From Candidatus Kaiserbacteria bacterium RIFCSPHIGHO2_01_FULL_53_31 (GTDB taxonomy: Bacteria > Patescibacteriota > Minisyncoccia > Phycocordibacterales > Phycocordibacteraceae), in the NCBI GenBank assembly GCA_001781095.1, contig MFKU01000010.1, positions 14,254-78,253 on the forward strand: 64,000 bases of DNA, given 5' to 3'. The position numbers were made by a program, and so were the translations under genes. Under the pieces are notes generated by a model. It did not search any database. It worked only from the letters and a program-made list of their open reading frames with translations, and was not told where the DNA came from. This document shows, in pieces, positions 26,547 through 63,425 of this stretch; the first letter of the stretch is position 1, and each line of letters opens with the position of its first letter.

Positions 26547-29384
26547 CTACCGGACTACTAGATTGATAATTTCCCCCGCCACATACACGATCCGCGTTGG
26601 CTCTTTACCCCCGAGTGCCATCGCTACGGCAGCAATTTTACGGGCCGCGGACACGGCATCAGCCTCGGGCGCATCTGGTGCGAGTGTTATCGAGCCGCGG
26701 CGTTTGCCGTTGACCTGCACCACAACCTCGATTTTAGTCGATACAAGAAGCTTCTCATCAAATTCTGGCCAGAGAGCGGTATGTATTGACTCTGTGTTTC
26801 CAAGCACTTCCCAAAGTTCTTCGGTAACATGCGGCGCAAACGGTGCTAACAATCGAAGATATTTGCTCCATTGTTCTTCTCCGATTGCCCCCTCCTTTTC
26901 CACGGCATTCAAGAAGATCATCATCTGGCTAACCGCCGTATTAAACTTGAAAGCCTCAATATCACTGCCGACCTTACGGATAGTCTCGTGCAAAAGAGTC
27001 TCGAAGCCCTTAACTGGCTCTTTGCGTACACGCTCGCGTAGATTCCAAAGCCGCTCGATGAATCGCGCAGTGCCCGCGATGGAGCTTGTGCTCCAAGCAG
27101 TCGTATTCTCGAACGGGCCCATGAACATCTCGTACATGCGGAAAGCATCAGCGCCATATTCCTCTACGACGTCATCCGGATTAATGACATTGCCGAGGCG
27201 CTTGCTCATTTTGCGTCCATCCTCAGCAAGGATGAATCCAAGGAATTCGAGTCGTGCAAAAGGTTCTGACGTACTCACCACACCAATGTCATAGAGGAAT
27301 TTGTGCCAGAACCGTGCATAAATAAGGTGACGAACCGCGTGGTCACCTCCGACGTACACATCCACCGGCGCCCAATACTTCTCTTTTTTCGATGACACGA
27401 GTTGATGTGCCTCGTGTGGGTCCATAAAGCGCAAGTAATACCAGGATGAACCAGCCCACTGCGGCATTGTATTGGTCTCGCGCTTCGCTGACCCACCGCA
27501 CTTAGGACACTTTACATTTACCCAGGCATCTATCTCTGCGAGTGGTGACTCTCCCGTCCCGGTCGGTTCGTAGGATTCAACTTCAGGTAGTACCACGGGC
27601 AAGTCTTCATAGGGTACGGGCACGACACCATCTTTAGGGCAGTGGACCACTGGAATCGGTTCGCCCCAGTAGCGCTGACGCGAGAAAACCCAATCGCGGA
27701 GCTTGTATCGAGTCACCTTCTTCCCTCCTACGGCTGCAACAATCTCGTCTTTAGCCTTTTCACTCTCCTGTCCATTAAACTGGTCTGAATTAGTAAGTAT
27801 TCCAGGTTCTGTCCAGACAAAATCATTATTATCGAGCAGATTGCGAGTGAAATCTCCCTCAAAAACGGTGAAGAAATCTTTTAGCTCATCTCTTTTCTTC
27901 CAGACGACCTCATGTAATGCTGCTTCCTTTTCATCCACAAGATCTCTCTCTTCGTTTTCAAGTTCAAAAAAGACGTAATGGAAATGCGCCCATCGGTTCT
28001 GTTTCTTCACGCGGTGGTAGAAGAATGTATTTATCATGACCTCTGGACGCTCGATATGTTTGAGATTCTTGTACCCTGTTTCTTCCCTTATCTCACGCCG
28101 CGCCGTCTCGACGTGATCTTCGCCATCATCAATGCCGCCAGTCACGAGCCCATGCATGAGTACATTTTTCCAGCTGATACAGAGATACGAATCGTCTTTA
28201 GGGTTCCGAACAATTGCACAGACTGCTTCGCGCTTCACGATCTCTTCGTCAGGTCGCAGTCTGGCATCACTTTCCTCCACTGCAACAAACTTAGGCTCCA
28301 CGACATGACGTACGGGTAGATTAAATTTCTGCGCGAATTCGAAATCGCGTTCGTCGTGTGCCGGCACGGCCATAATGGCGCCCGTGCCGTATGAGCCAAG
28401 AACGTAGTCAGCAACGAAGACAGGAATCTCTTCTTTTGTTGCTGGATTGATCGCCGTAACACCTTCTAGTTTAACCCCTGTCTTCTCCTTCCCTTCTGAA
28501 CCACGTTCAATTTCAGTTTTAGAAAACGCTGCCGTAACATACTCGCTCACTTCATGTGCATTCGTGATGTGCCCGCTAGTAGAGAGTTTCTCAATGAGCG
28601 CGTGTTCGGGCGCAAGTACTAGATACGTTGCACCAAATATCGTATCCGGACGCGTCGTGAATACCGATACTGTCTCCTCCCCCACTGCGAAGTTAATTTC
28701 TGCACCCTCTGAACGTCCAATCCAGTTGCGCTGTGCTTCTTTAATATGCTCTGGCCAGTTAAGTTGATCTAGGTCTTTGAGCATCCGGTCAGCATAATCA
28801 GTGATCTTCAGCACCCACTGCGGTAACTTCTTTTTTATTACCGGCGTTCCACAACGTTCACAGACGTTTCCATCAAGGTCCTCATTAGCGAGTCCCGTCA
28901 TGCACGAAGGACACCAGTTGATCGGCTCATCTGATTGGAATGCGAGCCCGTGTTCGAGCATCTTGAGGAAGATCCATTGTGTCCAATGGTAGTAGCTTGG
29001 ATCGGTCGTATTGATCTCTCGCGACCAATCATAGTTAAAGCCAATCTTCTCGAGTTGCGCTTTGAACGTCGCAATGTTCTGCTCGACTGCCTTTCGCGGA
29101 TGCGTCTTGTTCTTCAAGGCGAAGTTCTCGGCAGGGAGACCGAAGGCATCCCATCCCATAGGGTGCAGTACCGAGAAGCCGCGCATCTTTGAGAATCTTG
29201 AATAGATGTCAGTTGCGATATACCCCTTTGGGTGACCAACATGAAGTCCCTCACCAGACGGGTACGGGAACATGTCGAGCACATACTTCTTCTCTTTCTT
29301 TGAATCCTCTTCTGTTTTGTATAGATCGAGCTTCGCCCATTTTTCTTGAGCTTTTTTCTCTATTTCTGAATGGTCGTACGCCAT
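26547..29384 (-). CDS. leuS: leucyl-tRNA synthetase with embedded Nudix hydrolase domain
   Basis: HVGH and KMSKR motifs, editing domain. After VPAHDERDFEFAQKFNLPV a ~120-aa insertion carries a canonical Nudix box GGIDDGEDHVETARREIREETGY; 945 aa. Confidence 0.9.
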   Translation of the reverse strand: MAYDHSEIEKKAQEKWAKLDLYKTEEDSKKEKKYVLDMFPYPSGEGLHVGHPKGYIATDIYSRFSKMRGFSVLHPMGWDAFGLPAENFALKNKTHPRKAVEQNIATFKAQLEKIGFNYDWSREINTTDPSYYHWTQWIFLKMLEHGLAFQSDEPINWCPSCMTGLANEDLDGNVCERCGTPVIKKKLPQWVLKITDYADRMLKDLDQLNWPEHIKEAQRNWIGRSEGAEINFAVGEETVSVFTTRPDTIFGATYLVLAPEHALIEKLSTSGHITNAHEVSEYVTAAFSKTEIERGSEGKEKTGVKLEGVTAINPATKEEIPVFVADYVLGSYGTGAIMAVPAHDERDFEFAQKFNLPVRHVVEPKFVAVEESDARLRPDEEIVKREAVCAIVRNPKDDSYLCISWKNVLMHGLVTGGIDDGEDHVETARREIREETGYKNLKHIERPEVMINTFFYHRVKKQNRWAHFHYVFFELENEERDLVDEKEAALHEVVWKKRDELKDFFTVFEGDFTRNLLDNNDFVWTEPGILTNSDQFNGQESEKAKDEIVAAVGGKKVTRYKLRDWVFSRQRYWGEPIPVVHCPKDGVVPVPYEDLPVVLPEVESYEPTGTGESPLAEIDAWVNVKCPKCGGSAKRETNTMPQWAGSSWYYLRFMDPHEAHQLVSSKKEKYWAPVDVYVGGDHAVRHLIYARFWHKFLYDIGVVSTSEPFARLEFLGFILAEDGRKMSKRLGNVINPDDVVEEYGADAFRMYEMFMGPFENTTAWSTSSIAGTARFIERLWNLRERVRKEPVKGFETLLHETIRKVGSDIEAFKFNTAVSQMMIFLNAVEKEGAIGEEQWSKYLRLLAPFAPHVTEELWEVLGNTESIHTALWPEFDEKLLVSTKIEVVVQVNGKRRGSITLAPDAPEADAVSAARKIAAVAMALGGKEPTRIVYVAGEIINLVVR

Positions 29385-30485: not shown

Positions 30486-30695
30486 TTATCGTTCTCCGCT
30501 GGTCAGACGGAAACCCGATGGCAAACTGCTTGCATGTTGAACGACGTGTGCCGCGCACCGGGGACACATCGGTGTCATGATTGGCAACGTATCGTGCGTC
30601 ACTCCGACTGCGCTCTCGTGGCTGAGTGGCGTACCACAACGACATGCCTTTAGGCGCGTTACCGCCTCAGTGACACTCTCACGTCCGATATTCAT
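30486..30695 (-). CDS. small Cys-rich (zinc-ribbon-like) hypothetical protein with SD
   Basis: CRCG...H...CPRC; mRNA upstream reads AAGGAAAGGAGCTGACTA-ATG. Confidence 0.45.
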   Translation of the reverse strand: MNIGRESVTEAVTRLKACRCGTPLSHESAVGVTHDTLPIMTPMCPRCAAHVVQHASSLPSGFRLTSGER

Positions 30696-30732: not shown

Positions 30733-31119
30733 TTATCGATGCGGATCGCCTCTTATCTCGTCCGTCACCTCTACGAGTTTCTGGAGGCGTACGCCGCTGA
30801 CGATAATGACTTCGTCAACCCCGAAACTGAAATTGGTAAGGAACGAAAGCGGAAATCCGTGATCGTTCCACCATCTTGCAGCTGCCGGATGGCTGTCTGC
30901 TAGGATTTTCAGGGCCTCTTTTTGAGGGACGATTACACACTCCCTTCTGTCCTTTCTCACTCGTCCCGATTCAAGACCAATCTCGGCACCCGTAATGTAG
31001 CCGGCCGTTGGATAGCATGGAAGCACCAGCCCTACCCACGCAGCGCGTATTTCTTCGGGGGCCTCTCCTCTTGGGATCTTAGTTACTTTCACTCGTCCTG
31101 TTGCTCCTGATGATTTCAT
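30733..31119 (-). CDS. hypothetical protein (128 aa) with strong SD
   Basis: Start placed at MKSSGATG because GAAAGGAG lies 6 nt upstream; the annotated longer ORF uses TTG. Confidence 0.5.
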   Translation of the reverse strand: MKSSGATGRVKVTKIPRGEAPEEIRAAWVGLVLPCYPTAGYITGAEIGLESGRVRKDRRECVIVPQKEALKILADSHPAAARWWNDHGFPLSFLTNFSFGVDEVIIVSGVRLQKLVEVTDEIRGDPHR

Positions 31120-32428: not shown

Positions 32429-32680
32429 ATGAAAATTGACAAGTCGTTGAGGGCTGCTATTAGGGAAATCGGTCGGAAAGAATTTCTCCGTTGCATTGTC
32501 GAGTTCGTGCGTGATGCTCGGTTCTGCCTTACGGCCACCGGTCTAGACGAGGAGACCATGCGTGCCGTGATTGAGGCAGAAGCACTGGGCGCTTTCGATG
32601 ACATTCGTATTCCTCAGATAGTAAAAAGGGCCCTACAAAAGCACCCGAATCAGCCTTGCCTCGACGAGTGCGAATCATGA
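32429..32680 (+). CDS. small hypothetical protein (83 aa) with SD
   Basis: GGGGGAGG 5 nt upstream of the ATG; followed by a terminator. Confidence 0.45.
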   Translation: MKIDKSLRAAIREIGRKEFLRCIVEFVRDARFCLTATGLDEETMRAVIEAEALGAFDDIRIPQIVKRALQKHPNQPCLDECES

Positions 32681-32693
32681 TAAGCACAAGAGA

Positions 32694-32730
32694 AGGCCGA
32701 CGCGCTCCGCGCGTCGGCCTAATCTTTTAT
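32694..32730 (+). terminator. rho-independent terminator
   Basis: AGGCCGACGCGC-TCC-GCGCGTCGGCCT, then AATCTTTTAT. Confidence 0.6.
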
Positions 32731-32959: not shown

Positions 32960-33712
32960 TTATTGCGCGATTGTCCACGTCGTTCCTCGTATCGGGAACT
33001 GCCCTTGTACTGCGGCGGCAGTCTCAATTGAGGTCACGTCAATCACAAGCTGCATCCCAATATACGAATCAACGACACGAGTTATGGTGGCCTTTATTGT
33101 GAAGAGGCGCATTTGTCCTGGAGCAAAGTATGCATCGGTGGGCGCAAGGGCTACTCCATTTTGAAAAGGAGTTGAACCTTCAGCGCCGCCGGCTGAGCTG
33201 CGCGAGCCGCCTCTATCGTCTACGGTAGAGAGCCCAATGACAGACTCAGTAGGCGAAGAACCGTTTTGTTCGACCCAAAAGCCTTTGAGTAACGCCCCTT
33301 CTCCCCCGACGTTCGTAATCTGTAGATAAGAAATGGGGACTGATTGACCCGCATGTGCGGTCCCTCCAGTGAGGAGCGGCACACTCGCAATTGCGAGCGT
33401 CGTCGTCCCTACCGCAGTACTCAGAGTGGTGGTGGCTTCGACTGGTGGCGGAGGGATTATTCTAGGAACTGGTTTCGGGACGACGATTGGTACCGTGACC
33501 GCTTTTTTATGGACGGGAGGAGATACCAGCGCAGGTACTGGAGCAAGTGGCGAGGATGTCGCGATTTCTACACTGACTTCCGGAGTTGACGTTGCGATCC
33601 TGGTCGGTTGTGCGTATCCGAAGAAAGAGATAATTGGAATAAAGATCACGAGAAATATCGCTCCAATGGCGTGAAGGGTTGTTGAGGCTAACGAAAATAA
33701 AGTTGTGATCAT
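32960..33712 (-). CDS. secreted/membrane-anchored hypothetical protein, Pro-rich linker
   Basis: N-terminal TM, PIVVPKPVPRIIPPPP linker, beta-rich C-terminal domain. Confidence 0.5.
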   Translation of the reverse strand: MITTLFSLASTTLHAIGAIFLVIFIPIISFFGYAQPTRIATSTPEVSVEIATSSPLAPVPALVSPPVHKKAVTVPIVVPKPVPRIIPPPPVEATTTLSTAVGTTTLAIASVPLLTGGTAHAGQSVPISYLQITNVGGEGALLKGFWVEQNGSSPTESVIGLSTVDDRGGSRSSAGGAEGSTPFQNGVALAPTDAYFAPGQMRLFTIKATITRVVDSYIGMQLVIDVTSIETAAAVQGQFPIRGTTWTIAQ

Positions 33713-33785
33713 TTTTAGTATAGCTTACATAGGAATAAGGACACCCGGCGAAGAGCGTCCCTATTCCACTCGCGTGACTCGATGC

Positions 33786-34037
33786 TTAAATGTGCTTGCC
33801 AACAATATTATTGTATTGGCTGGTGAGCAGAAGAACTCCACTGTGTTCATCGATGTTGAACGCGGTCGCGATTGCCGACATCCAGTCGTTCGCCGTGACG
33901 GTGCTGACCTCCATATTTTGAGTCACGTACGCATAGGTTGCAGCGTGAGCAAAGCTCGGAAGCGCCAGCGCGAAGACACTTGAAGCAGCGATACCTGCGA
34001 CGAGAAGAGATGCGGAAAAACGATTAAAAGTAGTCAT
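33786..34037 (-). CDS. small secreted hypothetical protein
   Basis: Signal peptide ending AHA-AT; 83 aa. Confidence 0.4.
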   Translation of the reverse strand: MTTFNRFSASLLVAGIAASSVFALALPSFAHAATYAYVTQNMEVSTVTANDWMSAIATAFNIDEHSGVLLLTSQYNNIVGKHI

Positions 34038-34143
34038 ACATTTGTAGTTAATTTGATTTGCAGAAAGAGCGCTAGTAGAAATAATGTCGACCTCACTGGA
34101 ACCTACTTACTATGCCGTACACGCGCGTCTTGCATTACAGGGA

Positions 34144-34500
34144 TCAACCTTCTTGGTTGTTCAATTTGACCGCAGCCTCAGACGTTGACACCGTCTTTCC
34201 CATCAAGAACAATTTGACAATGCCGATGGCAATCATCCAGTACACAAGCATCGCGAGAAGTGTCGTCCACTCAAAGACATTGTAGGCCACCTGCGAGACC
34301 TGAAATACGCTGAGAAATGGAGCGGCAAACGGATAGGTGATCCCATAGATGAAACTACTGAATCCGGCACCAGCATTTGCTCCAAAGAGCTTCAATGCAA
34401 GGCGGAATGCGAGCAGTACTTCTAGGAGACCGAGTATGTACCAGACAATTTGTGTACCCCGATAGAGAGGCTTCGTACTAGGAGAATTATATGAATCCAT
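34144..34500 (-). CDS. YggT-family membrane protein
   Basis: Two-TM repeat architecture and size typical of YggT/Ycf19. Confidence 0.4.
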   Translation of the reverse strand: MDSYNSPSTKPLYRGTQIVWYILGLLEVLLAFRLALKLFGANAGAGFSSFIYGITYPFAAPFLSVFQVSQVAYNVFEWTTLLAMLVYWMIAIGIVKLFLMGKTVSTSEAAVKLNNQEG

Positions 34501-34511
34501 AATATTTTTTA

Positions 34512-34643
34512 TTAACTCAGCAGTTGAATAATAACTATGATAAGAGCAATGACGAGTAACGTATGAATTACGTTCCCACCGAGGTGAAAGCTAAATCCAA
34601 GAAGCCACAGAATGACCAAGATGACGACAATTGTCCAAAGCAT
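34512..34643 (-). CDS. 43-aa two-TM small membrane protein
   Basis: Manual translation MLWTIVVILVILWLLGFSFHLGGNVIHTLLVIALIIVIIQLLS. Confidence 0.4.
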   Translation of the reverse strand: MLWTIVVILVILWLLGFSFHLGGNVIHTLLVIALIIVIIQLLS

Positions 34644-34722
34644 ACTGTGTGAATAATGGGTAAAAGAGGGTTCAGCTCTTATGTCTGGAGCCGTCCATCT
34701 ACGCGTTCGGTGACACTGTCTT

Positions 34723-35265
34723 TTATGAGTGCTTGTATAACTGCTTCAGCTTCGCGAGCCCCCGGTGCAGTTGCACTGCAATCGTATTCTTCGATTTGCC
34801 CGTGATAAGCGACATTTCTTTTAAGGAAAGATCTTGCACGTATCGCATACGCATGACAGTCTGATACTGCGGAGGCAAGCGAGCGATTAAGAGCAGAGCC
34901 GCCTTCCCATCGAATATATTTACTAGTTGCTCTCGAGAATCGACACTTGGTTCATACCCCTTTTCAAGAAGTGAATCCAAGGAAGCGTTTCTGCGCTTAC
35001 GATATTCGTCCACGATGAGATCATTCAGAACGTGGTAGAGGAAGGACTTCATCACGTCAATTTTCCCTTCTCTCACAAGATACTTCCAAGCTTTCATAAA
35101 CGTATCCTGAACTAAATCATCACTCATTGCGCGGTCGTGGAGTTTAAAAAATGCACGCGTAGAAAGTCCGCTCGAATAGGCGTGATGAGCTTCAGTTAGT
35201 ATGTCCTGCTGCTGTTTCTCCTTTTGAGGAGTCATATAAAGACATGCCGGGGCGAGCGACACCAC
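34723..35265 (-). CDS. ECF-type RNA polymerase sigma factor
   Basis: Region 2 (DLVQDTFMKAWKYL) and region 4 (LSLKEMSLITGKSKNTIAVQLHRGLAKLK). Confidence 0.8.
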   Translation of the reverse strand: MVSLAPACLYMTPQKEKQQQDILTEAHHAYSSGLSTRAFFKLHDRAMSDDLVQDTFMKAWKYLVREGKIDVMKSFLYHVLNDLIVDEYRKRRNASLDSLLEKGYEPSVDSREQLVNIFDGKAALLLIARLPPQYQTVMRMRYVQDLSLKEMSLITGKSKNTIAVQLHRGLAKLKQLYKHS

Positions 35266-35382
35266 ATTACAGAGGTATTACAGTCTTGACAGATTGAGGA
35301 GAAGTTACACACCGATAGTATAGCATATTGTGCAAACATCATCTTTCTGTAATAAGCGCCGCCTCCTCACGGCTCTAAGTAT

Positions 35383-35976
35383 ATGAACAAAAATAGTGGA
35401 GATAGGGTGAAGACGTTTGTCGCGATTCCCCCCGAATTTGTTGAGAGGGTGTGGGAAGAAAGTTGGACATATATCAAGACGGTAGTAGATATCGTGCGAG
35501 AACCAATCCTGATTCTCGATAAGGACCTGCGTGTCATGGCGGCTAATGATTGCTTTTATCAGACCTTTCAGGTGGAACGCAAGGATACTGAAGGGAAAAT
35601 TGTATACGACCTCGGGAACGGCCAATGGGATATCCCTGCCCTTCGGAAACTCCTTGAAGATATTTTGCCGAAGAACTCCTTTTTTAAGGGTTTTGAAGTA
35701 GAGCACAACTTCCCATTCATTGGTCGTAAGGTGATGATTTTAAATGCTCGCCAAATTCACTTTAAAGAAGACGCTGCCGCAAAACTCTTCCCGCCCACAA
35801 TTTTTCTCGCAATGGAAGATGTTACCGACATGATGGCCGTCGCCGAGACGCTTGCGGGACATGCTAAACAGTTTGAAGCAAAGCTCACGGAACGAACCCA
35901 ACGGCTCGAAGCGCAAATCAGTATATTATCAAGGGAATTGAATCTGCTTAAAGAGAAGACTTTACGTACTCACTAA
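35383..35976 (+). CDS. PAS-domain protein with C-terminal coiled coil
   Basis: REPILILDKDLRVMAANDCFYQTFQV...GKIVYDL PAS-like fold; no output domain. Confidence 0.5.
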   Translation: MNKNSGDRVKTFVAIPPEFVERVWEESWTYIKTVVDIVREPILILDKDLRVMAANDCFYQTFQVERKDTEGKIVYDLGNGQWDIPALRKLLEDILPKNSFFKGFEVEHNFPFIGRKVMILNARQIHFKEDAAAKLFPPTIFLAMEDVTDMMAVAETLAGHAKQFEAKLTERTQRLEAQISILSRELNLLKEKTLRTH

Positions 35977-36052
35977 AAACCCCGGCCGTATGGCTCCGGG
36001 GAAATCAAGGTCAAAGGTTGATAAAAAAGTCCGTCCGCAGAATTGCATAATC

Positions 36053-36080
36053 TTGTTATTTCCCAAATGAAAGCTATAGT
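36053..36080 (+). promoter_or_regulatory. candidate sigma70-type promoter for the small-ORF cassette
   Basis: TTGTTA-16 nt-TATAGT, about 45 nt upstream of the first SD. Confidence 0.3.
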
Positions 36081-36125
36081 ACACACGGATCCAGATCCCA
36101 TAGATTACGAGAAAGGAGGTTCGCG

Positions 36126-36380
36126 ATGAAGAGACCTATGCGACGCCGGCGAATGGCAAGAGGAGCTCTCAAGAAATATCTTGAAGGACGATTGACTCCG
36201 TACATTAACAGGATATGCAAGACCGTTGTCGAGAACGGAAAGGCTTCTACCCAGGCGACGCTGGCGGTCACACAGCTCGTGCACGATAGCATCGCTCAAA
36301 TCAGGGTCTATAGCATGGTGACCAAAGGGATGCGGCGCGCGACCCGCGAACAGAAGCGCCTGAAGGAAGCACTCCACTAA
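36126..36380 (+). CDS. small basic hypothetical protein (84 aa), SD-led
   Basis: AAAGGAGGT 6 nt upstream of the ATG. Confidence 0.5.
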   Translation: MKRPMRRRRMARGALKKYLEGRLTPYINRICKTVVENGKASTQATLAVTQLVHDSIAQIRVYSMVTKGMRRATREQKRLKEALH

Positions 36381-36404
36381 CAGAAGCGATAGAGGAGGTG
36401 TGGC

Positions 36405-36470
36405 ATGTGGCGATTACTCGTTGTGTTGCTTCTGGGAATATTGTGGCTTCTGCATGTCCCGGAAGCGTGA
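36405..36470 (+). CDS. 21-aa hydrophobic peptide, SD-led
   Basis: AGGAGGTG then ATG: MWRLLVVLLLGILWLLHVPEA. Confidence 0.3.
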   Translation: MWRLLVVLLLGILWLLHVPEA

Positions 36471-36604
36471 GCTATTCGCTCGGCAGGTGAACCCTGCCGA
36501 GCGAATTCTGTCATTGTTGTTGAAGCTTGCTATTTCACACGTGAAAGATATAGTGCTGAACGGACCGCGTTCACAAAAAACAGACCAGAACCGAGGAGGT
36601 GGTC

Positions 36605-36895
36605 ATGTGTGAGGAAATGGGCAACAAGAATAACGGGTACACGCGAGATCTCGCGACAGAGATCGCGCAGGATCTCGACATTCCCGTAGATAGCGTGCTG
36701 ACAGCGCTTGGACTGAAATACGATGTCGAGGATGTCATCATCAGACGGAATCTCGACCGAGCGACGACGAAAGAAAAGGTGCGAGCGCTGCACGAGAGTT
36801 GTCGGCGCGGTAGCGAGACCGAATCAGTCGCTATCCGCAGATTCGCCGATGTCGTCCTAAAACAAGAGGCCGCGCTTCGAGGCGCATGTCTCTGA
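36605..36895 (+). CDS. small hypothetical protein (96 aa), SD-led
   Basis: GAGGAGGTGG 5 nt upstream of ATG (MCEEMGNKNNGY...). Confidence 0.5.
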   Translation: MCEEMGNKNNGYTRDLATEIAQDLDIPVDSVLTALGLKYDVEDVIIRRNLDRATTKEKVRALHESCRRGSETESVAIRRFADVVLKQEAALRGACL

Positions 36896-36911
36896 AAGGA
36901 GGGTTAGGGGA

Positions 36912-37097
36912 ATGTACCAAACACACGAAGATACGAAACGGCGGATTCTCAGAGGCAAGCTAGCGCTTGCGCGTAGCGTCCGAAAGGCTGCGTATGAGGC
37001 AAGTTCGGGCATTATCTACAACCTCGAGGTCGAGCTACGGCTACTCGGAAACGGTCTGACGAGACCGCGTGCACGAAACAAACGGAAAACGGACTAG
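36912..37097 (+). CDS. small basic hypothetical protein (61 aa), SD-led
   Basis: AAAGGAGGG upstream of the ATG. Confidence 0.45.
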   Translation: MYQTHEDTKRRILRGKLALARSVRKAAYEASSGIIYNLEVELRLLGNGLTRPRARNKRKTD

Positions 37098-37154
37098 AAC
37101 CGGATCGGCGTTCGTATCACTGCGTACGCCGACCCTCACCATTTTATCGGCGGG

Positions 37155-37379
37155 GTGGTGTATGATCACATCTGGAGGAAAATTGCTATGATTCTGACAC
37201 GAACAGAGCGAAGACCATTCATCAAACCCAGCAATCGGTTCTCCCGGCGTCACCAGCTGCTCATTCTCAATCTGCCAAAGGTCCCACTCCAGGATCGTTT
37301 GCGCGCAGTAGGCATCGTAGTCTGGAACAAGCTTCGCGTTCGTTGGGACAGCCTCATGTGCGCGCTCGGTTGGAGTTGA
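37155..37379 (+). CDS. small hypothetical protein (74 aa)
   Basis: Last ORF before the cassette terminator; weaker SD (GGGGTGGTG). Confidence 0.35.
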   Translation: MVYDHIWRKIAMILTRTERRPFIKPSNRFSRRHQLLILNLPKVPLQDRLRAVGIVVWNKLRVRWDSLMCALGWS

Positions 37380-37395
37380 ACCGGTATAGGCTCAC

Positions 37396-37433
37396 GGAAG
37401 GCCCTCGGGACACCGTGGGCTTTCCTTTTTTGT
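37396..37433 (+). terminator. strong rho-independent terminator ending the small-ORF cassette
   Basis: GGAAGGCCC...GGGCTTTCC followed by TTTTTTGTT. Confidence 0.65.
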
Positions 37434-37580
37434 TGGCAACAATAATTATCCCCACCCAACTTGCGTCTTATCGGCATTTCTGTCATACTAATCTCACTCG
37501 CAGAGTATTAGAGCTTCGCAGCGTCCACAAGACCTCAAAGTGTTCAGTTTCGGCGAGGTTAATTAAGTTAAATCCAATTC

Positions 37581-37940
37581 ATGGACACAGCATCAGTACA
37601 GGGAAACAAGCTTTACGTAGGCGGTATTCCCTATCGCTCGACAGAAGACGATATGAAAAAGGCCTTTAGCGAGGCTGGTACAGTCGTTTCTGCGAGCATT
37701 ATTAGCGATCGTATGACCGGCCGCTCACGCGGTTTCGGCTTCGTCGAGATGGCCTCCGAAGCAGAGGCGCAAGCGGCGATCGATCGTTGGGACGGCAAGG
37801 AGATGGACGGGCGGACGCTCTCAGTATCCTTCGCTCGCCCGCAGGGTGATAGACCTCCTCGTCGCGAAGGCGGCTTTGGTGGTAGTGATCGCGGCGGCTA
37901 CGGCGGTGGCAACGGCGGATACGGTCGCGGCGGATATTAA
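37581..37940 (+). CDS. RRM-type RNA-binding protein with Gly/Arg-rich tail
   Basis: RNP2 LYVGGI, RNP1 RGFGFVEM, C-terminal GGYGGGNGGYGRGGY. Confidence 0.85.
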   Translation: MDTASVQGNKLYVGGIPYRSTEDDMKKAFSEAGTVVSASIISDRMTGRSRGFGFVEMASEAEAQAAIDRWDGKEMDGRTLSVSFARPQGDRPPRREGGFGGSDRGGYGGGNGGYGRGGY

Positions 37941-38011
37941 TCTCTCGTCGAGATAGCACAATGCTCGCTCCGAAAGGGGCGGGCGTTTTGCATATATGCT
38001 AGCGTCTGCAC

Positions 38012-38746
38012 ATGACTCGTGATGAGAAGTGGCTGCTCGATGAAAAATATCTCGGCAGAGAAACGCCGGAATATTTTGGGGACAAGAGGCGGCTCGCCAC
38101 GGGCGAGCCGCTCGCCTACGTCATCGGCTGGCAACCATTTCTAGGTCTTAAAATCTACCTCGACTCCCGTCCGCTCATCCCCCGCCCCGAGACCGAATGG
38201 TGGACTGAAGGACTTCTGAAGAAAATGTCGGGGAGTGAACGACCAACTGTGTTTCTTGATCTTTGCGCTGGTTCGGGCGCGATTGGGTGTGCTGTGTTGA
38301 AAAATATTCAGGACGCGCAGGTCTACTTCGGTGAGATTGACCCCGCACATGAGGCAACTATTTTTAAAAACATACGAGGAAATAATCTCGATGAGTCCCG
38401 CGCTCATTTCGGCATCGGCGATCTCTTTCAACCGTTGAAGGATTTGAGATTTGACGTTATAGCCGTCAATCCTCCCTATATCCCGATAAATCGCGAGCTG
38501 CCTGCGAGCGTAACTGACTACGAACCGGCGCGCGCGCTCTACGCCGGAACTGACGGACTAGATATCATCCGCAAAATTGCCACGGAACTTCGCGCCTATC
38601 TTACACGCGGTGGCACCGCATGGATTGAATGCGACAGCGCTCACGCTGAAGCCGCTCGCGCTCTGTTTCTGAAACAAGAATTCCGCGCCGTCATAAAGGA
38701 CGACCAGTTCGGCGTACCACGAGTCGTGGAAGTGAGTTACTCATGA
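38012..38746 (+). CDS. prmC: HemK/PrmC-family protein-(glutamine-N5) methyltransferase
   Basis: NPPY motif (VNPPYIP); SAM-binding fold. Confidence 0.7.
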   Translation: MTRDEKWLLDEKYLGRETPEYFGDKRRLATGEPLAYVIGWQPFLGLKIYLDSRPLIPRPETEWWTEGLLKKMSGSERPTVFLDLCAGSGAIGCAVLKNIQDAQVYFGEIDPAHEATIFKNIRGNNLDESRAHFGIGDLFQPLKDLRFDVIAVNPPYIPINRELPASVTDYEPARALYAGTDGLDIIRKIATELRAYLTRGGTAWIECDSAHAEAARALFLKQEFRAVIKDDQFGVPRVVEVSYS

Positions 38747-45230: not shown

Positions 45231-45413
45231 ATGATGAGTAGAAGAAAACGTTTTATGCTCGTTTCTGGCGCACTGCTTGTTGGTGCGACCATCGGCATCG
45301 CACTCGACACCGTGACTGGGACTGACACTAGTCAGTTGGGATGGAGGTGGCTTGTTCATGACCTCTATCTCATGACGTGGGGTTCTGTCATCATGGCTGT
45401 GGTTCTCCGGTAA
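45231..45413 (+). CDS. small membrane hypothetical protein (60 aa), SD-led
   Basis: AAAGGAGGT 7 nt upstream of the ATG; two hydrophobic segments. Confidence 0.4.
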   Translation: MMSRRKRFMLVSGALLVGATIGIALDTVTGTDTSQLGWRWLVHDLYLMTWGSVIMAVVLR

Positions 45414-45597: not shown

Positions 45598-45993
45598 TTA
45601 TCGCTTCTTAGCGTTTCTGGAGTGTGACTTGAGCCAGGTAGCAATTACCGCGGCCTCAATCTTATCGGTTGTCACAGACAATACAAACGTCTCAACTGCC
45701 TTGTTCGTCGCGGTCAATACATGTCCATTTACAAAGAGAAACCGCGCGCACGCGGCAATACCCGTTCTCTTATTTCCATCCACAAATACGTGATAATTAA
45801 CGACGGCTTCGAGATAGACTGCCGCCTTTATAAATAGGTCGGGGTAGAGGTCTCGCCCGCCGAACGTAGCGCGCGGCTTGTTGGCGGCTGCAGCCAGGAG
45901 ATGCGGATCACGGACGCCATGGGAGCCGCCGGTCGCATCGATAACCTCAGAGTGGATAACGAGAATCGACTCTGCGGTAAGATACCGAATCAT
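45598..45993 (-). CDS. doc: Doc-family (Fic fold) toxin
   Basis: Fic/Doc motif HVFVDGNKRTG. Confidence 0.8.
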   Translation of the reverse strand: MIRYLTAESILVIHSEVIDATGGSHGVRDPHLLAAAANKPRATFGGRDLYPDLFIKAAVYLEAVVNYHVFVDGNKRTGIAACARFLFVNGHVLTATNKAVETFVLSVTTDKIEAAVIATWLKSHSRNAKKR

Positions 45994-57191: not shown

Positions 57192-57220
57192 AAAGTTAGG
57201 ACATCGGATGTCCTAACTTT
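57192..57220. repeat. REP-like palindromic hairpin (left)
   Basis: AAAGTTAGGACATCGGATGTCCTAACTTT; overlaps the transposase stop codon. Confidence 0.7.
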
Positions 57221-57863
57221 TGTATTCCAGATAGTCGCTTTCTTGAGCAAGGCTTGGGTCATGAATAACTTCAACGATTGTCCGCTCATACTCTGACCGC
57301 GTCCCGAGCATTGGATTAAGCACATCGGTCCTAATAATTGACGGGAAATTTCGCACGCCCAAATAATCGAGATGACTGCTCCAGCGATAGTCGAGTAATG
57401 CTTCGAGAGCCTTTTTAGTATTTCTAACCTCGCCCGCGCGCCATTCTGGATGCACATAATCGAGAGGATTGAGATGTATATAAAATGGAATATAGAGAAA
57501 ATGCGCATCACGTTTTATTTGCACCTTGCGATATTTACCCTGCCAGAGAGCACCCGAGCGTTTATGCCGATTATTGAAATATTTTGTATAGCCCATATTA
57601 ATCTTTTGCATAAACAGAGAAATCCCATTCTCGATACGTTCTGTAACGAGCAGATGATAGTGATTCTTCATTAAGCAATACGAATGGATATCGACGAGTT
57701 GTTCACGAGCATGATCTTCGCGCCGCTCATTCAGAATGTAATTCGGCGTCGTGTTGCGATCATTTAAGGCATACAGGTTGTGAATGAAGCGGAGACGGTC
57801 GTGCTTGTCTGTAACGATATCTCGTTTCTCCACCCCACGCCCAATAAGGTGCCAGAATTCCAT
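57213..57863 (-). CDS. Y1 HUH transposase (REP-associated tyrosine transposase / IS200-like)
   Basis: HUH motif NHYHLLV; catalytic tyrosine region GYTKYFN; 216 aa. Confidence 0.7.
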   Translation of the reverse strand: MEFWHLIGRGVEKRDIVTDKHDRLRFIHNLYALNDRNTTPNYILNERREDHAREQLVDIHSYCLMKNHYHLLVTERIENGISLFMQKINMGYTKYFNNRHKRSGALWQGKYRKVQIKRDAHFLYIPFYIHLNPLDYVHPEWRAGEVRNTKKALEALLDYRWSSHLDYLGVRNFPSIIRTDVLNPMLGTRSEYERTIVEVIHDPSLAQESDYLEYKS

Positions 57864-60708: not shown

Positions 60709-60903
60709 ATGCGTCTTGAATCGAATAGGAAGCGCCCGCGACTGGCTCCCGTTTTCTTCCTGGCTGCTGTCGCGGGGGCAACGTGGTTAATCTTCACAAC
60801 TCCCGAAACGAATGCTCGTCAAAAGAGCCCTGCACGTTTCGAGTCACTCGGGCCGGTTTCAGAGCAACGACCCAATCGCCACGAGTGTTCTCCGGTTCCA
60901 TAA
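60709..60903 (+). CDS. small secreted/membrane peptide (64 aa), SD-led
   Basis: AAGGAGGG 5 nt upstream of ATG: MRLESNRKRPRLAPVFFLAAVAGATWLIF...; followed by a terminator. Confidence 0.4.
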   Translation: MRLESNRKRPRLAPVFFLAAVAGATWLIFTTPETNARQKSPARFESLGPVSEQRPNRHECSPVP

Positions 60904-63206: not shown

Positions 63207-63425
63207 CTATCGGCCACTGACGCGTCTCTGCTGATTGCAACACTGAGAGACGTGAGAACTCACGTACTTTCCCTGCACCCAACAGTAGAGCACGTCATAC
63301 GGCTTTGTCTCTACGTGTGCGCCTGCTCCCGTACAAACTGCACAGAGCGGATACCCAGCCAGTGCGAGCTCCGGCCGATATTTCGCCACAAACGGAATTT
63401 CTGCTGCGGCCCCCTGCTGCTGCAT
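63207..63425 (-). CDS. small Cys-containing hypothetical protein (possibly a YceD/DUF177 remnant)
   Basis: Position upstream of rpmF, where DUF177 usually sits; sequence match is weak. Confidence 0.25.
   Translation of the reverse strand: MQQQGAAAEIPFVAKYRPELALAGYPLCAVCTGAGAHVETKPYDVLYCWVQGKYVSSHVSQCCNQQRRVSGR

Follow-up and report, generated by a model that had tools for sequence, protein, structure and literature searches.

A cassette of ~1.4 kb in an uncultured groundwater bacterium, Candidatus Kaiserbacteria, consists of two back-to-back mini-operons of tiny protein genes on the plus strand. Its signals are present and statistically exceptional. The reading we favour, to which we give somewhat less than an even chance, is that the cassette is a genuine accessory module confined to this species and built of two sigma-70-type units in the same direction. 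As to its regulation, it is probably a lineage-restricted, co-regulated small-protein module under repressor control. The first unit would comprise promoter P1, a 45-nt leader, ORF84, ORF21 and a strong hairpin, and the second promoter P2, a 50-nt leader, ORF96, ORF61, possibly ORF63, and a terminator. All positions refer to the window, the 64-kb stretch of DNA that was analysed (Table 1). The preliminary description had listed five plus-strand ORFs, which we recovered at 84, 21, 96, 61 and 74 aa, and had regarded them as a small-protein gene set without described function; this also holds, and we find the set in one species only. The single head-to-tail run that it proposed is instead divided into two units by P2 and the hairpin behind ORF21.

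Table 1 Features of the two-unit cassette in the order of their positions
Feature	Position	Strand	Signal or support
P1, promoter/operator element (predicted) CTTGTTATTTCCCAAATGAAAGCTATAGT	36052..36080	+	consensus scan; degenerate 29-mer match
Unit 1 leader, 45 nt	36081..36125	+	SD AAAGGAGGT at 36112-36120; sequence
ORF84, 84 aa	36126..36380	+	gene callers in all assemblies
ORF21, hydrophobic peptide MWRLLVVLLLGILWLLHVPEA	36405..36470	+	SD GAGGAGGTG at 36392-36400
Perfect 14-bp inverted repeat, 5-nt loop	36474..36506	+	3 nt past ORF21 stop codon
P2, second promoter/operator copy (predicted) CTTGCTATTTCACACGTGAAAGATATAGT	36526..36554	+	consensus and 29-mer scans
Unit 2 leader, 50 nt	36555..36604	+	SD GAGGAGGTGG at 36593-36602; sequence
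ORF96, 96 aa	36605..36895	+	distant relatives; codon-position GC
ORF61, 61 aa	36912..37097	+	called on 23+ contigs
Two adjoining hairpins past ORF61 stop codon, without U-tract	37102..37160	+	
ORF63 (candidate)	37188..37379	+	ATG 37188, GGAGG 37174; 74-aa version from GTG 37155
Unit 2 intrinsic terminator (predicted)	37396..37431	+	hairpin 37396-37425, T6 37426-37431

Two transcription units and their signals

The promoter-like site claimed in the preliminary description was found as TTGTTA-16-TATAGT at 36053-36080. P1 thus contains a -35 box (TTGTTA), a 16-nt spacer with the inverted repeat TTTC-N6-GAAA, and a -10 box (TATAGT). P2 is identical to P1 at 24 of 29 bases, and its spacer carries the palindrome TTTCAC-AC-GTGAAA. 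A degenerate 29-mer pattern matches P1 and P2 only within the 64 kb, with 0 matches expected. The identity extends to bases of the spacer, and RNA polymerase has no need of those bases. We propose, from these two sites, that the inverted repeat between the -35 and -10 boxes would serve as an operator, and that one DNA-binding protein encoded in the cassette would repress both units together. The best candidate for such a repressor would be ORF96, through its helix-turn-helix-like N-terminus. A promoter matrix trained on the host was so noisy that it gave no useful ranking of P1 and P2. The candidate regulon motif common to the two sites is TATTTCNCANNTGAAAGNTATAGT.

Within the units the intergenic gaps are short (24 and 16 nt), which we count in favour of the operon reading. 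The hairpin behind ORF21 has a folding energy of -30.1 kcal/mol (z -5.3; none of 200 shuffled sequences was as stable) and is followed by a broken U-rich tract, and it is a putative terminator or attenuator of unit 1. In unit 2, the leader contains a 5′ stem-loop (TGAACG-GACCG-CGTTCA), the two adjoining hairpins past ORF61 fold with -26.6 kcal/mol (z -2.6), and the terminator, a GC hairpin followed by six T residues as previously claimed, has a centroid energy of -23.4 kcal/mol. No structured RNA is supported in 37098-37433 (z about -1). Rfam covariance models gave no match at E<=1 within 35000-38500 and, over the whole window, only a tRNA, the single one of the window, at 636-720.

Shine-Dalgarno sites and coding potential

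Four GGAGG cores, at 36115, 36394, 36595 and 36898, precede the ATG codons of ORF84, ORF21, ORF96 and ORF61 by 6, 6, 5 and 9 nt. The consensus Shine-Dalgarno (SD) sites of four ORFs had been noted correctly, but the spacing of 5-6 nt given for all of them had not. The SD of ORF61, AAAGGAGGG at 36895-36903, overlaps the stop codon of ORF96. A GGAGG at 37174 also precedes, by 9 nt, an internal ATG (37188) of the fifth ORF, from which a 63-aa protein (ORF63) would be read; all five ORFs are therefore SD-led. Sites that combine GGAGG, ATG and an ORF of at least 20 aa occur five times in the cassette, whereas 5000 dinucleotide shuffles yielded 0.10 on average and never more than 3. When the 64 kb were scanned, every 1.4-kb segment with at least three such sites overlapped the cassette, and in 1.22 Mb of related Kaiserbacteria there was no 1.4-kb segment with more than two distinct ones.

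This arrangement contrasts with the translation style of the host. Among the 56 genes of the window, 24 are leaderless-like and three have a strong SD. In relatives, a -10 box lies 4-12 nt before the start codon of HisRS in all 71 of 71 species and of PrmC in 41 of 43 cases, with essentially no SD. By these patterns, leaderless initiation prevails among the genes of the host and its relatives, and few of them carry an SD. The idea that the host never uses an SD was ruled out, since GGAGG/AGGAG is ~1.45-fold enriched before ATG-ORFs in relatives. A few conserved genes in relatives also keep an SD, and SD sites appear to be rare but functional in the clade. The anti-SD motif has been found in only 48% of Parcubacteria 16S rRNAs (Tsurumaki et al. 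2022, PMC9297842). The cassette genes lie behind leaders of 45-50 nt or inside operons and would thus depend on SD-led initiation, which may account for their run of near-perfect SD sites.

Candidate Phyla Radiation (CPR) bacteria have many unannotated small proteins and an unusual translation apparatus. The cassette is of interest in this setting, as five near-perfect SDs, two promoters whose -35 boxes are good, and terminators of the classic type stand against the leaderless housekeeping genes of the clade. If its genes are expressed, SD-led initiation would persist for a particular class of accessory genes with leaders, and the cassette would supply a promoter/operator, leaders, SDs and terminators for expression studies in an uncultured lineage. 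If it is silent or functionless, it would be just another orphan gene cluster.

Under a host codon model, the annotated frames of ORF84, ORF96, ORF61 and ORF63 are the best plus-strand frames, and those of ORF84 and ORF61 rank best of all six. The antisense frame scores equal or higher for ORF96 and ORF63, and in the latter case it scores higher. ORF21 ranks third of six and is not long enough to be tested by homology or codon use. We note that the codon scores of the cassette ORFs lie between in-frame and off-frame values of the host, which we count against our favoured reading. Codon-position GC of ORF96 and ORF61 agrees with the host, and the three values for ORF96 are 0.64/0.41/0.61 (host, 0.60/0.41/0.60). 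ORF63 has G at codon position 1 with a frequency of 0.19, compared with 0.37 in host genes. It was called by a gene caller in one assembly only, a promoter-like ATCACA-16-TATGAT overlaps its start, and the folding of its region is unremarkable (z -1.0). ORF63 is the weakest gene candidate of the cassette, and this stretch may instead encode a small RNA or represent a 3′ UTR.

A rival reading is that the block is mostly non-coding or coding only in part, with ORF96 as the sole real gene, the other frames arising by chance within leaders, UTRs or a small RNA, and the GGAGG motifs having another role. In its favour, homologues are missing for four of the five ORFs, the codon scores are intermediate, the basic and Arg-rich translations are typical for spurious frames, antisense ORFs of 70-90 aa exist in the same block, and support for ORF63 is weak. 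However, translation is favoured by the five GGAGG motifs (0.1 expected), each placed 5-9 nt ahead of the ATG that opens the longest available frame, by the operon-like spacing of these sites, by their uniqueness in comparison with the 1.22 Mb of relatives, by the rank of the annotated frames on the plus strand, and by the pLDDT of 80 for a single-sequence AlphaFold2 (AF2) model of ORF84. We consider a mostly non-coding block unlikely.

The small proteins and the family of ORF96

ORF84 is very basic (pI 11.5, net charge +16), and AF2 predicts a two-helix hairpin with helices 8-36 and 42-83. ORF61 is basic as well (pI 10.9, net charge +9), as is ORF63 (pI 12.0). ORF21 is strongly hydrophobic (GRAVY 1.72) and is absent from the records of gene callers. 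ORF84 and ORF61, both helical, could act as nucleic-acid-binding effectors, and ORF21 could be a membrane peptide. Among 5.8 billion proteins, both ORF84 and ORF96 matched only themselves. ORF61 had no homologues in 80 related loci, viral contigs or further searches. The lack of homologues anywhere for ORF84, ORF61, ORF63 and ORF21 also counts against our favoured reading. There is no paralogy among the small proteins of the cassette, nor between p83sd and the ORF96 family.

The earlier statement that no ORF resembles a known family holds for curated libraries and fails for ORF96, which has distant relatives. No ORF, the antisense ones included, had a match below E 0.01 in scans of Pfam, PHROGs, NCBIfam and PADLOC, and ORF61, ORF63 and ORF84 had no matches in these libraries or the PDB. 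Sequence and profile searches of the PDB returned nothing or only insignificant matches. Foldseek against the PDB, with AF2 models of pLDDT 76 and 80, gave no match below E 0.5, ORF84 included. For ORF96, a phmmer search of 1.84 billion representatives found the distant relative P0003 (E 7.9e-5). A profile search added P0004, P0005 and P0006, which have an ORF96-like architecture, and recovered ORF96 itself at E 5e-33. BLASTP gave 38% identity for ORF96 over the repeat described below.

ORF96 is mildly acidic (pI 5.4) and predicted to be all-helical, and its AF2 model from the five-sequence alignment has five helices and a pLDDT of 76. Its N-terminus carries a helix-turn-helix-like motif, LATEIAQDLDIPVDSVLTALG, and its C-terminus a single copy of a ~35-aa repeat, ATTKEKVRALHESCRRGSETESVAIRRF. 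The corresponding elements of the family are the N-terminal motif I-x-x-M-A-x-x-x-x-I-P-V-x-x-I-x-x-A-L-G and the repeat ASTIEEVRxAYxxAxxGSExExxAIxKL in 1-3 copies. ORF96 thus has the family architecture, in which one or more ~35-aa repeats ('TxEEVRxxY...GSE...AI') come after an N-terminal HTH-like motif. Six residues (I22, A30, L31, E53, S66 and A72) are invariant in all five sequences. P0003 comes from a Nanoarchaeota MAG and P0005 from a CPR-like genome. By these alignments, ORF96 belongs to a real, sparse and unnamed small-protein family of CPR and DPANN organisms, which offers a first anchor for a small-protein family common to ultra-small bacteria and archaea. Only P0003 touches Pfam (TMP_N at 27.4 bits, cut-off 27), and a metagenome scan with the family alignment gave no matches. 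The helix-turn-helix of ORF96 is putative and follows from a sequence pattern. Foldseek, PDB profile and Pfam searches found nothing significant for it, and the poverty of its putative recognition helix in basic residues counts against this assignment.

Distribution, origin and comparison with known systems

No homologue of any cassette ORF was found in the 80 related Kaiserbacteria loci, and no sampled relative has an orthologous region. The cassette is located at a synteny breakpoint upstream of the conserved RRM-PrmC-HisRS block; the RRM-PrmC-HisRS-Exo-DsbA-RpoD synteny beside it is kept in relatives, and the whole YchF-to-RRM interval is species-specific. Population variants (n=12) are at least 99.7% identical. 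Inside the cassette they carry only two SNPs, of which one is synonymous and the other gives R78H, and there is also a P25Q variant. The metagenome contig L097 (Ga0209518_1104882; 1 kb) matches the window exactly from 35734 into ORF84 and diverges by 30% just upstream. This mosaic suggests that the segment moves between lineages by recombination.

The cassette had been described as richer in AT than its surroundings and as seemingly acquired, with a phage or plasmid as one possible source. Neither claim is borne out. Its GC content is 0.532, compared with a mean of 0.533 for the 64-kb window, and its tetranucleotide distance falls at the 50th percentile. A foreign composition was therefore ruled out, and the host-like composition gives no support for recent import from a distant donor. 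What is AT-rich and deviates in composition is the adjoining stretch at 33.6-36.0 kb. In viral contigs, no match was found to ORF84, ORF61 or the ORF96 family, nor to the operator pattern, and phage and plasmid BLAST searches returned only a 34-nt chance match. The cassette has no flanking direct repeats, and its neighbours are ECF sigma, PAS, YGGT-like and RRM genes. The suggestion of a bacteriocin fares no better, as neither a leader-type precursor nor a transporter or immunity gene turned up and Pfam and NCBIfam detected no bacteriocin or RiPP domain in the cassette or its neighbours.

In our view the cassette is improbable as the remnant of a mobile element or as its cargo, for example a phage early region or an acr-aca-type anti-defence operon. 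A -35 promoter, a leader, a strong SD and a U-tract terminator differ from the leaderless, extended -10 style of the host, and the orphan proteins, the duplicated promoter/operator, the synteny breakpoint and the mosaic contig would all agree with such an origin. However, viral or plasmid matches are lacking at the protein, DNA and operator levels, there is no integrase, att-like repeat or tRNA nearby, no defence system adjoins the cassette, and its GC and tetranucleotide use are exactly those of the host.

We likewise doubt that the cassette is a toxin-antitoxin or addiction module, either of type II, with acidic ORF96 as a DNA-binding antitoxin that would repress its own palindromic promoter and basic ORF61 as toxin, or with ORF21 as a type I-like membrane toxin, or both. 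The acidic-then-basic pair lies 16 nt apart behind a palindrome-bearing promoter, the short hydrophobic ORF21 has a strong hairpin directly 3′ of it, a variable region houses the strain-specific module, and a Fic/Doc gene elsewhere in the window indicates that such modules occur in this genome. On the other hand, no toxin or antitoxin family was found in Pfam, NCBIfam, PADLOC or PHROGs, ORF61 is a helical protein unlike known type II toxin folds, and the relatives of ORF96 stand alone elsewhere, without a small basic partner. There is also no convincing antisense promoter opposite ORF21: a consensus scan found no sigma-70-like minus-strand promoter there, and a host-trained -10 scan placed minus-strand sites only at 36969-36924 and 36117-36072.

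A broader proposal, which we regard as quite unlikely, is a self-regulated and horizontally exchangeable effector module (addiction or anti-defence, with ORF96 as repressor) that relies on SDs in an otherwise leaderless Parcubacteria lineage. If this were true, Kaiserbacteria ribosomes would keep a working anti-SD for leadered accessory small-protein genes, and the cassette would be a natural probe of anti-SD loss in uL1-lacking Parcubacteria. Very unlikely is a native regulatory output of the adjoining ECF sigma/PAS genes, with the cassette co-transcribed with the PAS gene or controlled by it within a lineage-specific signalling island at 32.3-37.6 kb. In favour of this reading, the PAS gene (35383-35976) ends in a plus-strand hairpin without a U-tract, so that read-through into P1 is possible, the YchF-to-RRM interval is wholly species-specific, the breakpoint of L097 falls within the PAS gene, whose 3′ half thus travels with the cassette, and PAS mRNA 35848-35864 is complementary at 16 of 17 nt to the end of ORF21 (36452-36468). 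Against it, this complementarity is near chance level by our own estimate (p ~0.05), the cassette is served by promoters of its own, none of which was recognised as an ECF-type motif, and the ECF/PAS block differs in composition (GC 0.45 vs 0.53).

The accessory module that we favour shares features with several known systems. In acr-aca operons, orphan small effectors are under a helix-turn-helix repressor that binds promoter inverted repeats. The cassette resembles these anti-CRISPR/Aca-type operons in its orphan small proteins, strong promoter and inverted repeats suited to an operon-encoded repressor; it differs in the absence of a mobile-element context, a viral match and an adjoining defence system, and in that its helix-turn-helix is putative. 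With integron gene-cassette arrays it shares small same-strand ORFs arranged head to tail and a strong hairpin after one of them, but it has a single hairpin and no integrase, and its ORFs are under their own promoters. No R''/R' core sites were seen on reading the cassette sequence, and repeat, tRNA and direct-repeat searches gave no support to integron attC, att-site or tRNA-target ideas.

Type II operons are similar in having adjacent small acidic and basic genes, a palindrome suited to autorepression and a strain-specific site. ORF96 and ORF61 are predicted to be two small co-transcribed genes, given their 16-nt gap and the SD that overlaps the stop codon. In contrast to such operons, the cassette shows no toxin or antitoxin family or fold (in Pfam, NCBIfam, PADLOC, PHROGs and the PDB, ORF61, ORF63 and ORF84 match no type II toxin superfamily, including RelE/ParE, MazF, PIN, Doc and HipA), and ORF61 is helical and shorter than typical toxins. 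ORF21, within the range of hydrophobic type I toxin peptides (<60 aa), is comparable to Ibs, TisB, Ldr and Fst-like toxins in its 21-aa hydrophobic sequence, strong SD and adjoining stable RNA hairpin. It differs from them as the second gene of an operon that is not separately controlled, with no antisense RNA gene evident, and it has no family match. A likeness by sequence links ORF96 to its unnamed family. Identity to the family members is only about 30%, and ORF96 opens a small operon behind a duplicated promoter, whereas the other members are encoded by solitary genes in unrelated contexts. Even so, ORF96 shares with them the N-terminal motif, one copy of the repeat, the small size and the all-helical prediction, and P0005 is SD-led, as ORF96 is.

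Layout of the small-ORF cassette

All five small plus-strand ORFs named in the preliminary description are present in the cassette (36040-37433) as described, and so is the strong terminator, a hairpin followed by T6. The perfect Shine-Dalgarno (SD) sites placed there 5-6 nt from the ATG were confirmed in their GGAGG cores, but not in the spacing of the fourth. The fifth ORF, 74 aa long when started at GTG 37155 as in the earlier reading, also contains an ATG at 37188, 9 nt past a fifth GGAGG, and its SD-led form is therefore 63 aa (ORF63; ORF names give lengths in aa). Sites were counted as GGAGG, 4-10 nt, ATG and an ORF of 20 aa or more; the cassette's plus strand has five and its minus strand none, and 5000 dinucleotide shuffles of it averaged 0.10, the highest count being 3. 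All 1.4-kb frames of the 64-kb window with at least three such sites overlap the cassette. The SD run is statistically striking and a real feature.

The promoter-like site reported at the front is also present (P1), but the cassette is not a single bounded run, as a twin promoter (P2) and an internal hairpin divide it into two units. Unit 1 consists of P1, a 45-nt leader, ORF84, a 24-nt gap, ORF21 and the hairpin. Unit 2 consists of P2, a 50-nt leader with a 5' stem-loop, ORF96, a 16-nt gap where the ORF61 SD overlaps the ORF96 stop codon, ORF61, two hairpins, the uncertain ORF63 and the terminator. The 29-mers of P1 (CTTGTTATTTCCCAAATGAAAGCTATAGT) and P2 (CTTGCTATTTCACACGTGAAAGATATAGT) agree at 24 of 29 positions, and their consensus is found nowhere else in the window with up to 3 mismatches. 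The common bases include most of the promoter spacer, which is not read by RNA polymerase and which contains an inverted repeat (TTTC-N6-GAAA in P1, TTTCAC-AC-GTGAAA in P2). Outside both hexamers ~14 of 17 positions match, for which we estimate a chance of roughly 1e-5 to 1e-4.

Features of the cassette and its neighbours (window coordinates)
Feature	Position	Strand	Remarks
ECF-type sigma factor	34723-35265	minus	left neighbour
PAS-domain protein with coiled-coil tail	35383-35976	plus	left neighbour
P1 core	36053-36080	plus	TTGTTA-16-TATAGT
GGAGG core	36115	plus	6 nt before ORF84 ATG, within AAAGGAGGT
GGAGG core	36394	plus	6 nt before ORF21 ATG, within GAGGAGGTG
Perfect 14-bp hairpin between units	36474-36506		3 nt past ORF21 stop codon; dG -30.1 kcal/mol, z -5.3
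P2 core	36527-36554	plus	TTGCTA-16-TATAGT
GGAGG core	36595	plus	5 nt before ORF96 ATG, within GAGGAGGTGG
GGAGG core	36898	plus	9 nt before ORF61 ATG, within AAAGGAGGG
Terminator hairpin	37396-37425
RRM RNA-binding protein	37581-37940		right neighbour; beyond it PrmC, HisRS, exonuclease, DsbA-like protein

Coding evidence for the five ORFs

ORF96 (host protein A2678_02025) is a gene, and it is very probably translated. Its codon-position GC (0.64/0.41/0.61) matches that of the host (0.60/0.41/0.60). The earlier statement that no ORF resembles a known family does not apply to ORF96, for which HMMER, run exhaustively against 1.84 billion representatives, gave one distant match, P0003 (E 7.9e-5), and a profile search three further relatives. 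ORF96 and all relatives share an N-terminal helix-turn-helix-like motif (...MSKETDIGVSAIKNALGI, ...MARKTNIDVGLIKKALSV and ...MSAEEGIPVEDIRYALGV in relatives, ...IAQDLDIPVDSVLTALGL in ORF96) and a ~35-aa repeat, ASTIEEVRxAYxxAxxGSExExxAIxKL, present one to three times. The AlphaFold2 (AF2) model of ORF96 from a 5-sequence alignment has five helices (pLDDT 76), and the protein is mildly acidic (pI 5.4). The other family members, from CPR-like genomes and a Nanoarchaeota MAG, are encoded by genes that stand alone. With P0003 (Nanoarchaeota MAG) and P0005, the repeat family is common to an archaeon and CPR-like bacteria, and the P0003 repeats pass the Pfam TMP_N (tape measure N-terminal) threshold by a narrow margin.

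For ORF84 (A2678_02020), ORF61, ORF63 and ORF21, the statement holds, as no search that we ran found homologues. Their support as genes is intrinsic only, starting with SD sites and operon-like spacing. A 3-periodic Markov model trained on the host adds that, of the plus-strand frames, the annotated one scores best for ORF84, ORF61 and ORF63, with the codon-complementary antisense frame as sole competitor. Absolute codon scores of the cassette ORFs lie between in-frame and off-frame host values, and a nearby bona fide DUF5670 mini-gene is similarly intermediate. ORF84, whose single-sequence AF2 model is a two-helix hairpin (pLDDT 80), is probably translated; ORF61 is slightly less secure, translation still being favoured; for ORF21, which is purely hydrophobic, the call is nearly even, leaning against. 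ORF63 is the weakest candidate, with a G frequency of 0.19 at codon position 1, a higher-scoring antisense frame and a call from only one assembly's gene caller; its translation is doubtful. ORF84, ORF61 and ORF63 are all very basic (pI 11.5, 10.9 and 12.0).

Initiation style of the host lineage

The host, Candidatus Kaiserbacteria bacterium RIFCSPHIGHO2_01_FULL_53_3x, is a CPR/Parcubacteria MAG from an aquifer. Among 56 conventional genes of the window, 24 were flagged with a leaderless layout (a TAnnnT box whose end lies 4-12 nt upstream of the start codon) and only 3 have a 5-mer SD. We compared 80 loci (1.22 Mb) of other Kaiserbacteria species, anchored on HisRS (61-76% identical). A -10 box precedes HisRS in 71/71 loci and PrmC in 41/43, and an SD-like 4-mer or SD is found in 1/71 and 0/43, respectively. 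The extended -10 in Kaiserbacteria reads TGnTAnnnT or GCTATAnT and stops 4-12 nt short of the start codon; in the window and these loci, such genes have no conserved -35 and SDs are nearly absent. Judged by these sequences, Kaiserbacteria genes are overwhelmingly leaderless.

GGAGG-ATG-ORF sites occur in the relatives at 0.125 per 1.4 kb, essentially chance, and no 1.4-kb window of the 1.22 Mb has more than two distinct sites of this kind. Zero SD use in the clade is ruled out, since GGAGG and AGGAG are ~1.45-fold enriched before ATG-ORFs over control pentamers and two conserved gene families keep the SD across species. The placement of Kaiserbacteria relative to the group lacking uL1 is said to be covered by Brown and colleagues in 2015. 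Published work likewise marks this part of the tree as unusual: just 48% of Parcubacteria had a detected anti-SD motif, whose loss overlaps with the group lacking uL1 (Tsurumaki et al. 2022, PMC9297842). On the simplest interpretation, genes of this lineage that carry a leader or lie inside an operon need an SD, and the cassette is the densest case of this.

Other SD-led ORFs occur in the window. A2678_01990 (32429-32680, plus strand, 83 aa), a second stand-alone orphan at the other end of the species-specific island, has its own promoter (TTGAGA-17-TATAGT), a ~45-nt leader with a start (TATAGTGCGAGCGGAC) similar to that of the P2 leader (TATAGTGCTGAACGGAC), and its own hairpin terminator (32688-32726). 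Five small intergenic ORFs of 60-128 aa with strong SDs (45231-45413 and 60709-60903, plus; 63207-63425, 30486-30695 and 30733-31119, minus) have no Pfam match; the 60-aa one, next to a Fic/Doc gene (45598-45993), is predicted to be a membrane protein. Since the SD-site total outside the cassette is near chance, some of these may be spurious.

Origin, neighbourhood and proposed regulation

The phage or plasmid origin first proposed gained no support, as protein and DNA searches matched neither, and no integrase, tRNA or att repeat lies near the cassette; nor did we find evidence for a bacteriocin origin. The block is not AT-richer, as had been claimed (GC 0.532 vs 0.533 for the window), and it ranks at the 50th percentile for tetranucleotide distance from the window; its composition is native. 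The compositional outlier is instead 33600-36000 (GC ~0.45, deviant tetranucleotide use), with the ECF sigma factor, the DUF5670 mini-protein, a YGGT-like membrane protein and the PAS gene. The part of the window with the strongest compositional deviation includes an IS200-like Y1 transposase domain protein (57213-57863, minus). A 945-aa class I aminoacyl-tRNA synthetase (26547-29384, minus) has an internal precomputed NUDIX match.

Relatives keep the order RRM-PrmC-HisRS-Exo-DsbA-(PD-(D/E)XK)-RpoD. Left of RRM nothing is conserved and neighbours differ by species; YchF and RRM are 1.5 kb apart in one relative and 5.3 kb here, and the 32.3-37.6 kb interval is therefore species-specific. The cassette ORFs, the PAS gene and other island genes are absent from the 80 loci. 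The PrmC-HisRS gap (13 nt here, 0.8-2.9 kb in many relatives) and the likewise variable RRM-PrmC spacing look like further insertion hot spots in the conserved block. An SD-less RRM leader (~37530-37580, GTGTTCAGTTTCGGCGAGGTTAATTAGTTAAATCC...), conserved in many species, may be an autoregulatory 5' UTR, and the Gly-rich RRM tail is hypervariable in a population contig (L004).

In the same population, over 20 metagenome contigs carry exact copies of ORF84 and ORF96, with at least 99.7% identity over the cassette. A metagenome scan for the operator pattern gave Ga0209518_1104882 (1003 nt), a mosaic that is 30% divergent, mostly synonymously, up to 35733 and then identical. Against 35461-35733, inside the PAS gene, 82/273 positions differ, mostly at third codon positions; from 35734 to its end at 36336, spanning P1, the SD and 70 ORF84 codons, none do. 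The variant PAS protein is known from no other contig. This sharp switch indicates probable recombination between lineages ~30% apart. Similar divergent ends in YchF and the RRM tail of contigs L009 and L004 could be contig-end effects. No divergent cassette allele was found in the protein databases searched, so the cassette is either absent from other lineages or identical there. These patterns are suggestive of an accessory segment that spread recently through homologous recombination in its flanking DNA.

Directly after the PAS stop codon, a hairpin (35980-36001) has a T-run on the minus strand only (GGGGTTTTT), and opposite P1 (36072-36117) the minus strand has a host-like extended -10 (TGTGTACTAT). 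Together they could produce a ~90-nt divergent transcript, and, given this arrangement, transcription of the PAS gene may also run on into the cassette. On the same strand, 16/17 nt in the PAS gene's 3' part (35848-35864) are complementary to the last ORF21 codons (36452-36468) (chance ~0.05 for a region of this size, by our estimate).

We propose, with confidence a little short of even, that the cassette is a co-regulated two-unit module under a cassette-encoded repressor. Both units would be transcribed from sigma-70-type promoters and translated by SD-dependent initiation, and a cassette-encoded protein, for which ORF96 is the best candidate, would bind the shared inverted repeat and repress both. 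The cassette could otherwise be linked to its PAS and ECF neighbours, or be anti-defence-like or toxin-antitoxin-like, but family membership supported 0/3 of these readings. The cassette is, as the preliminary description had thought possible, an undescribed cluster of orphan small-protein genes, and what lends it interest is the contrast with its leaderless, SD-poor host.
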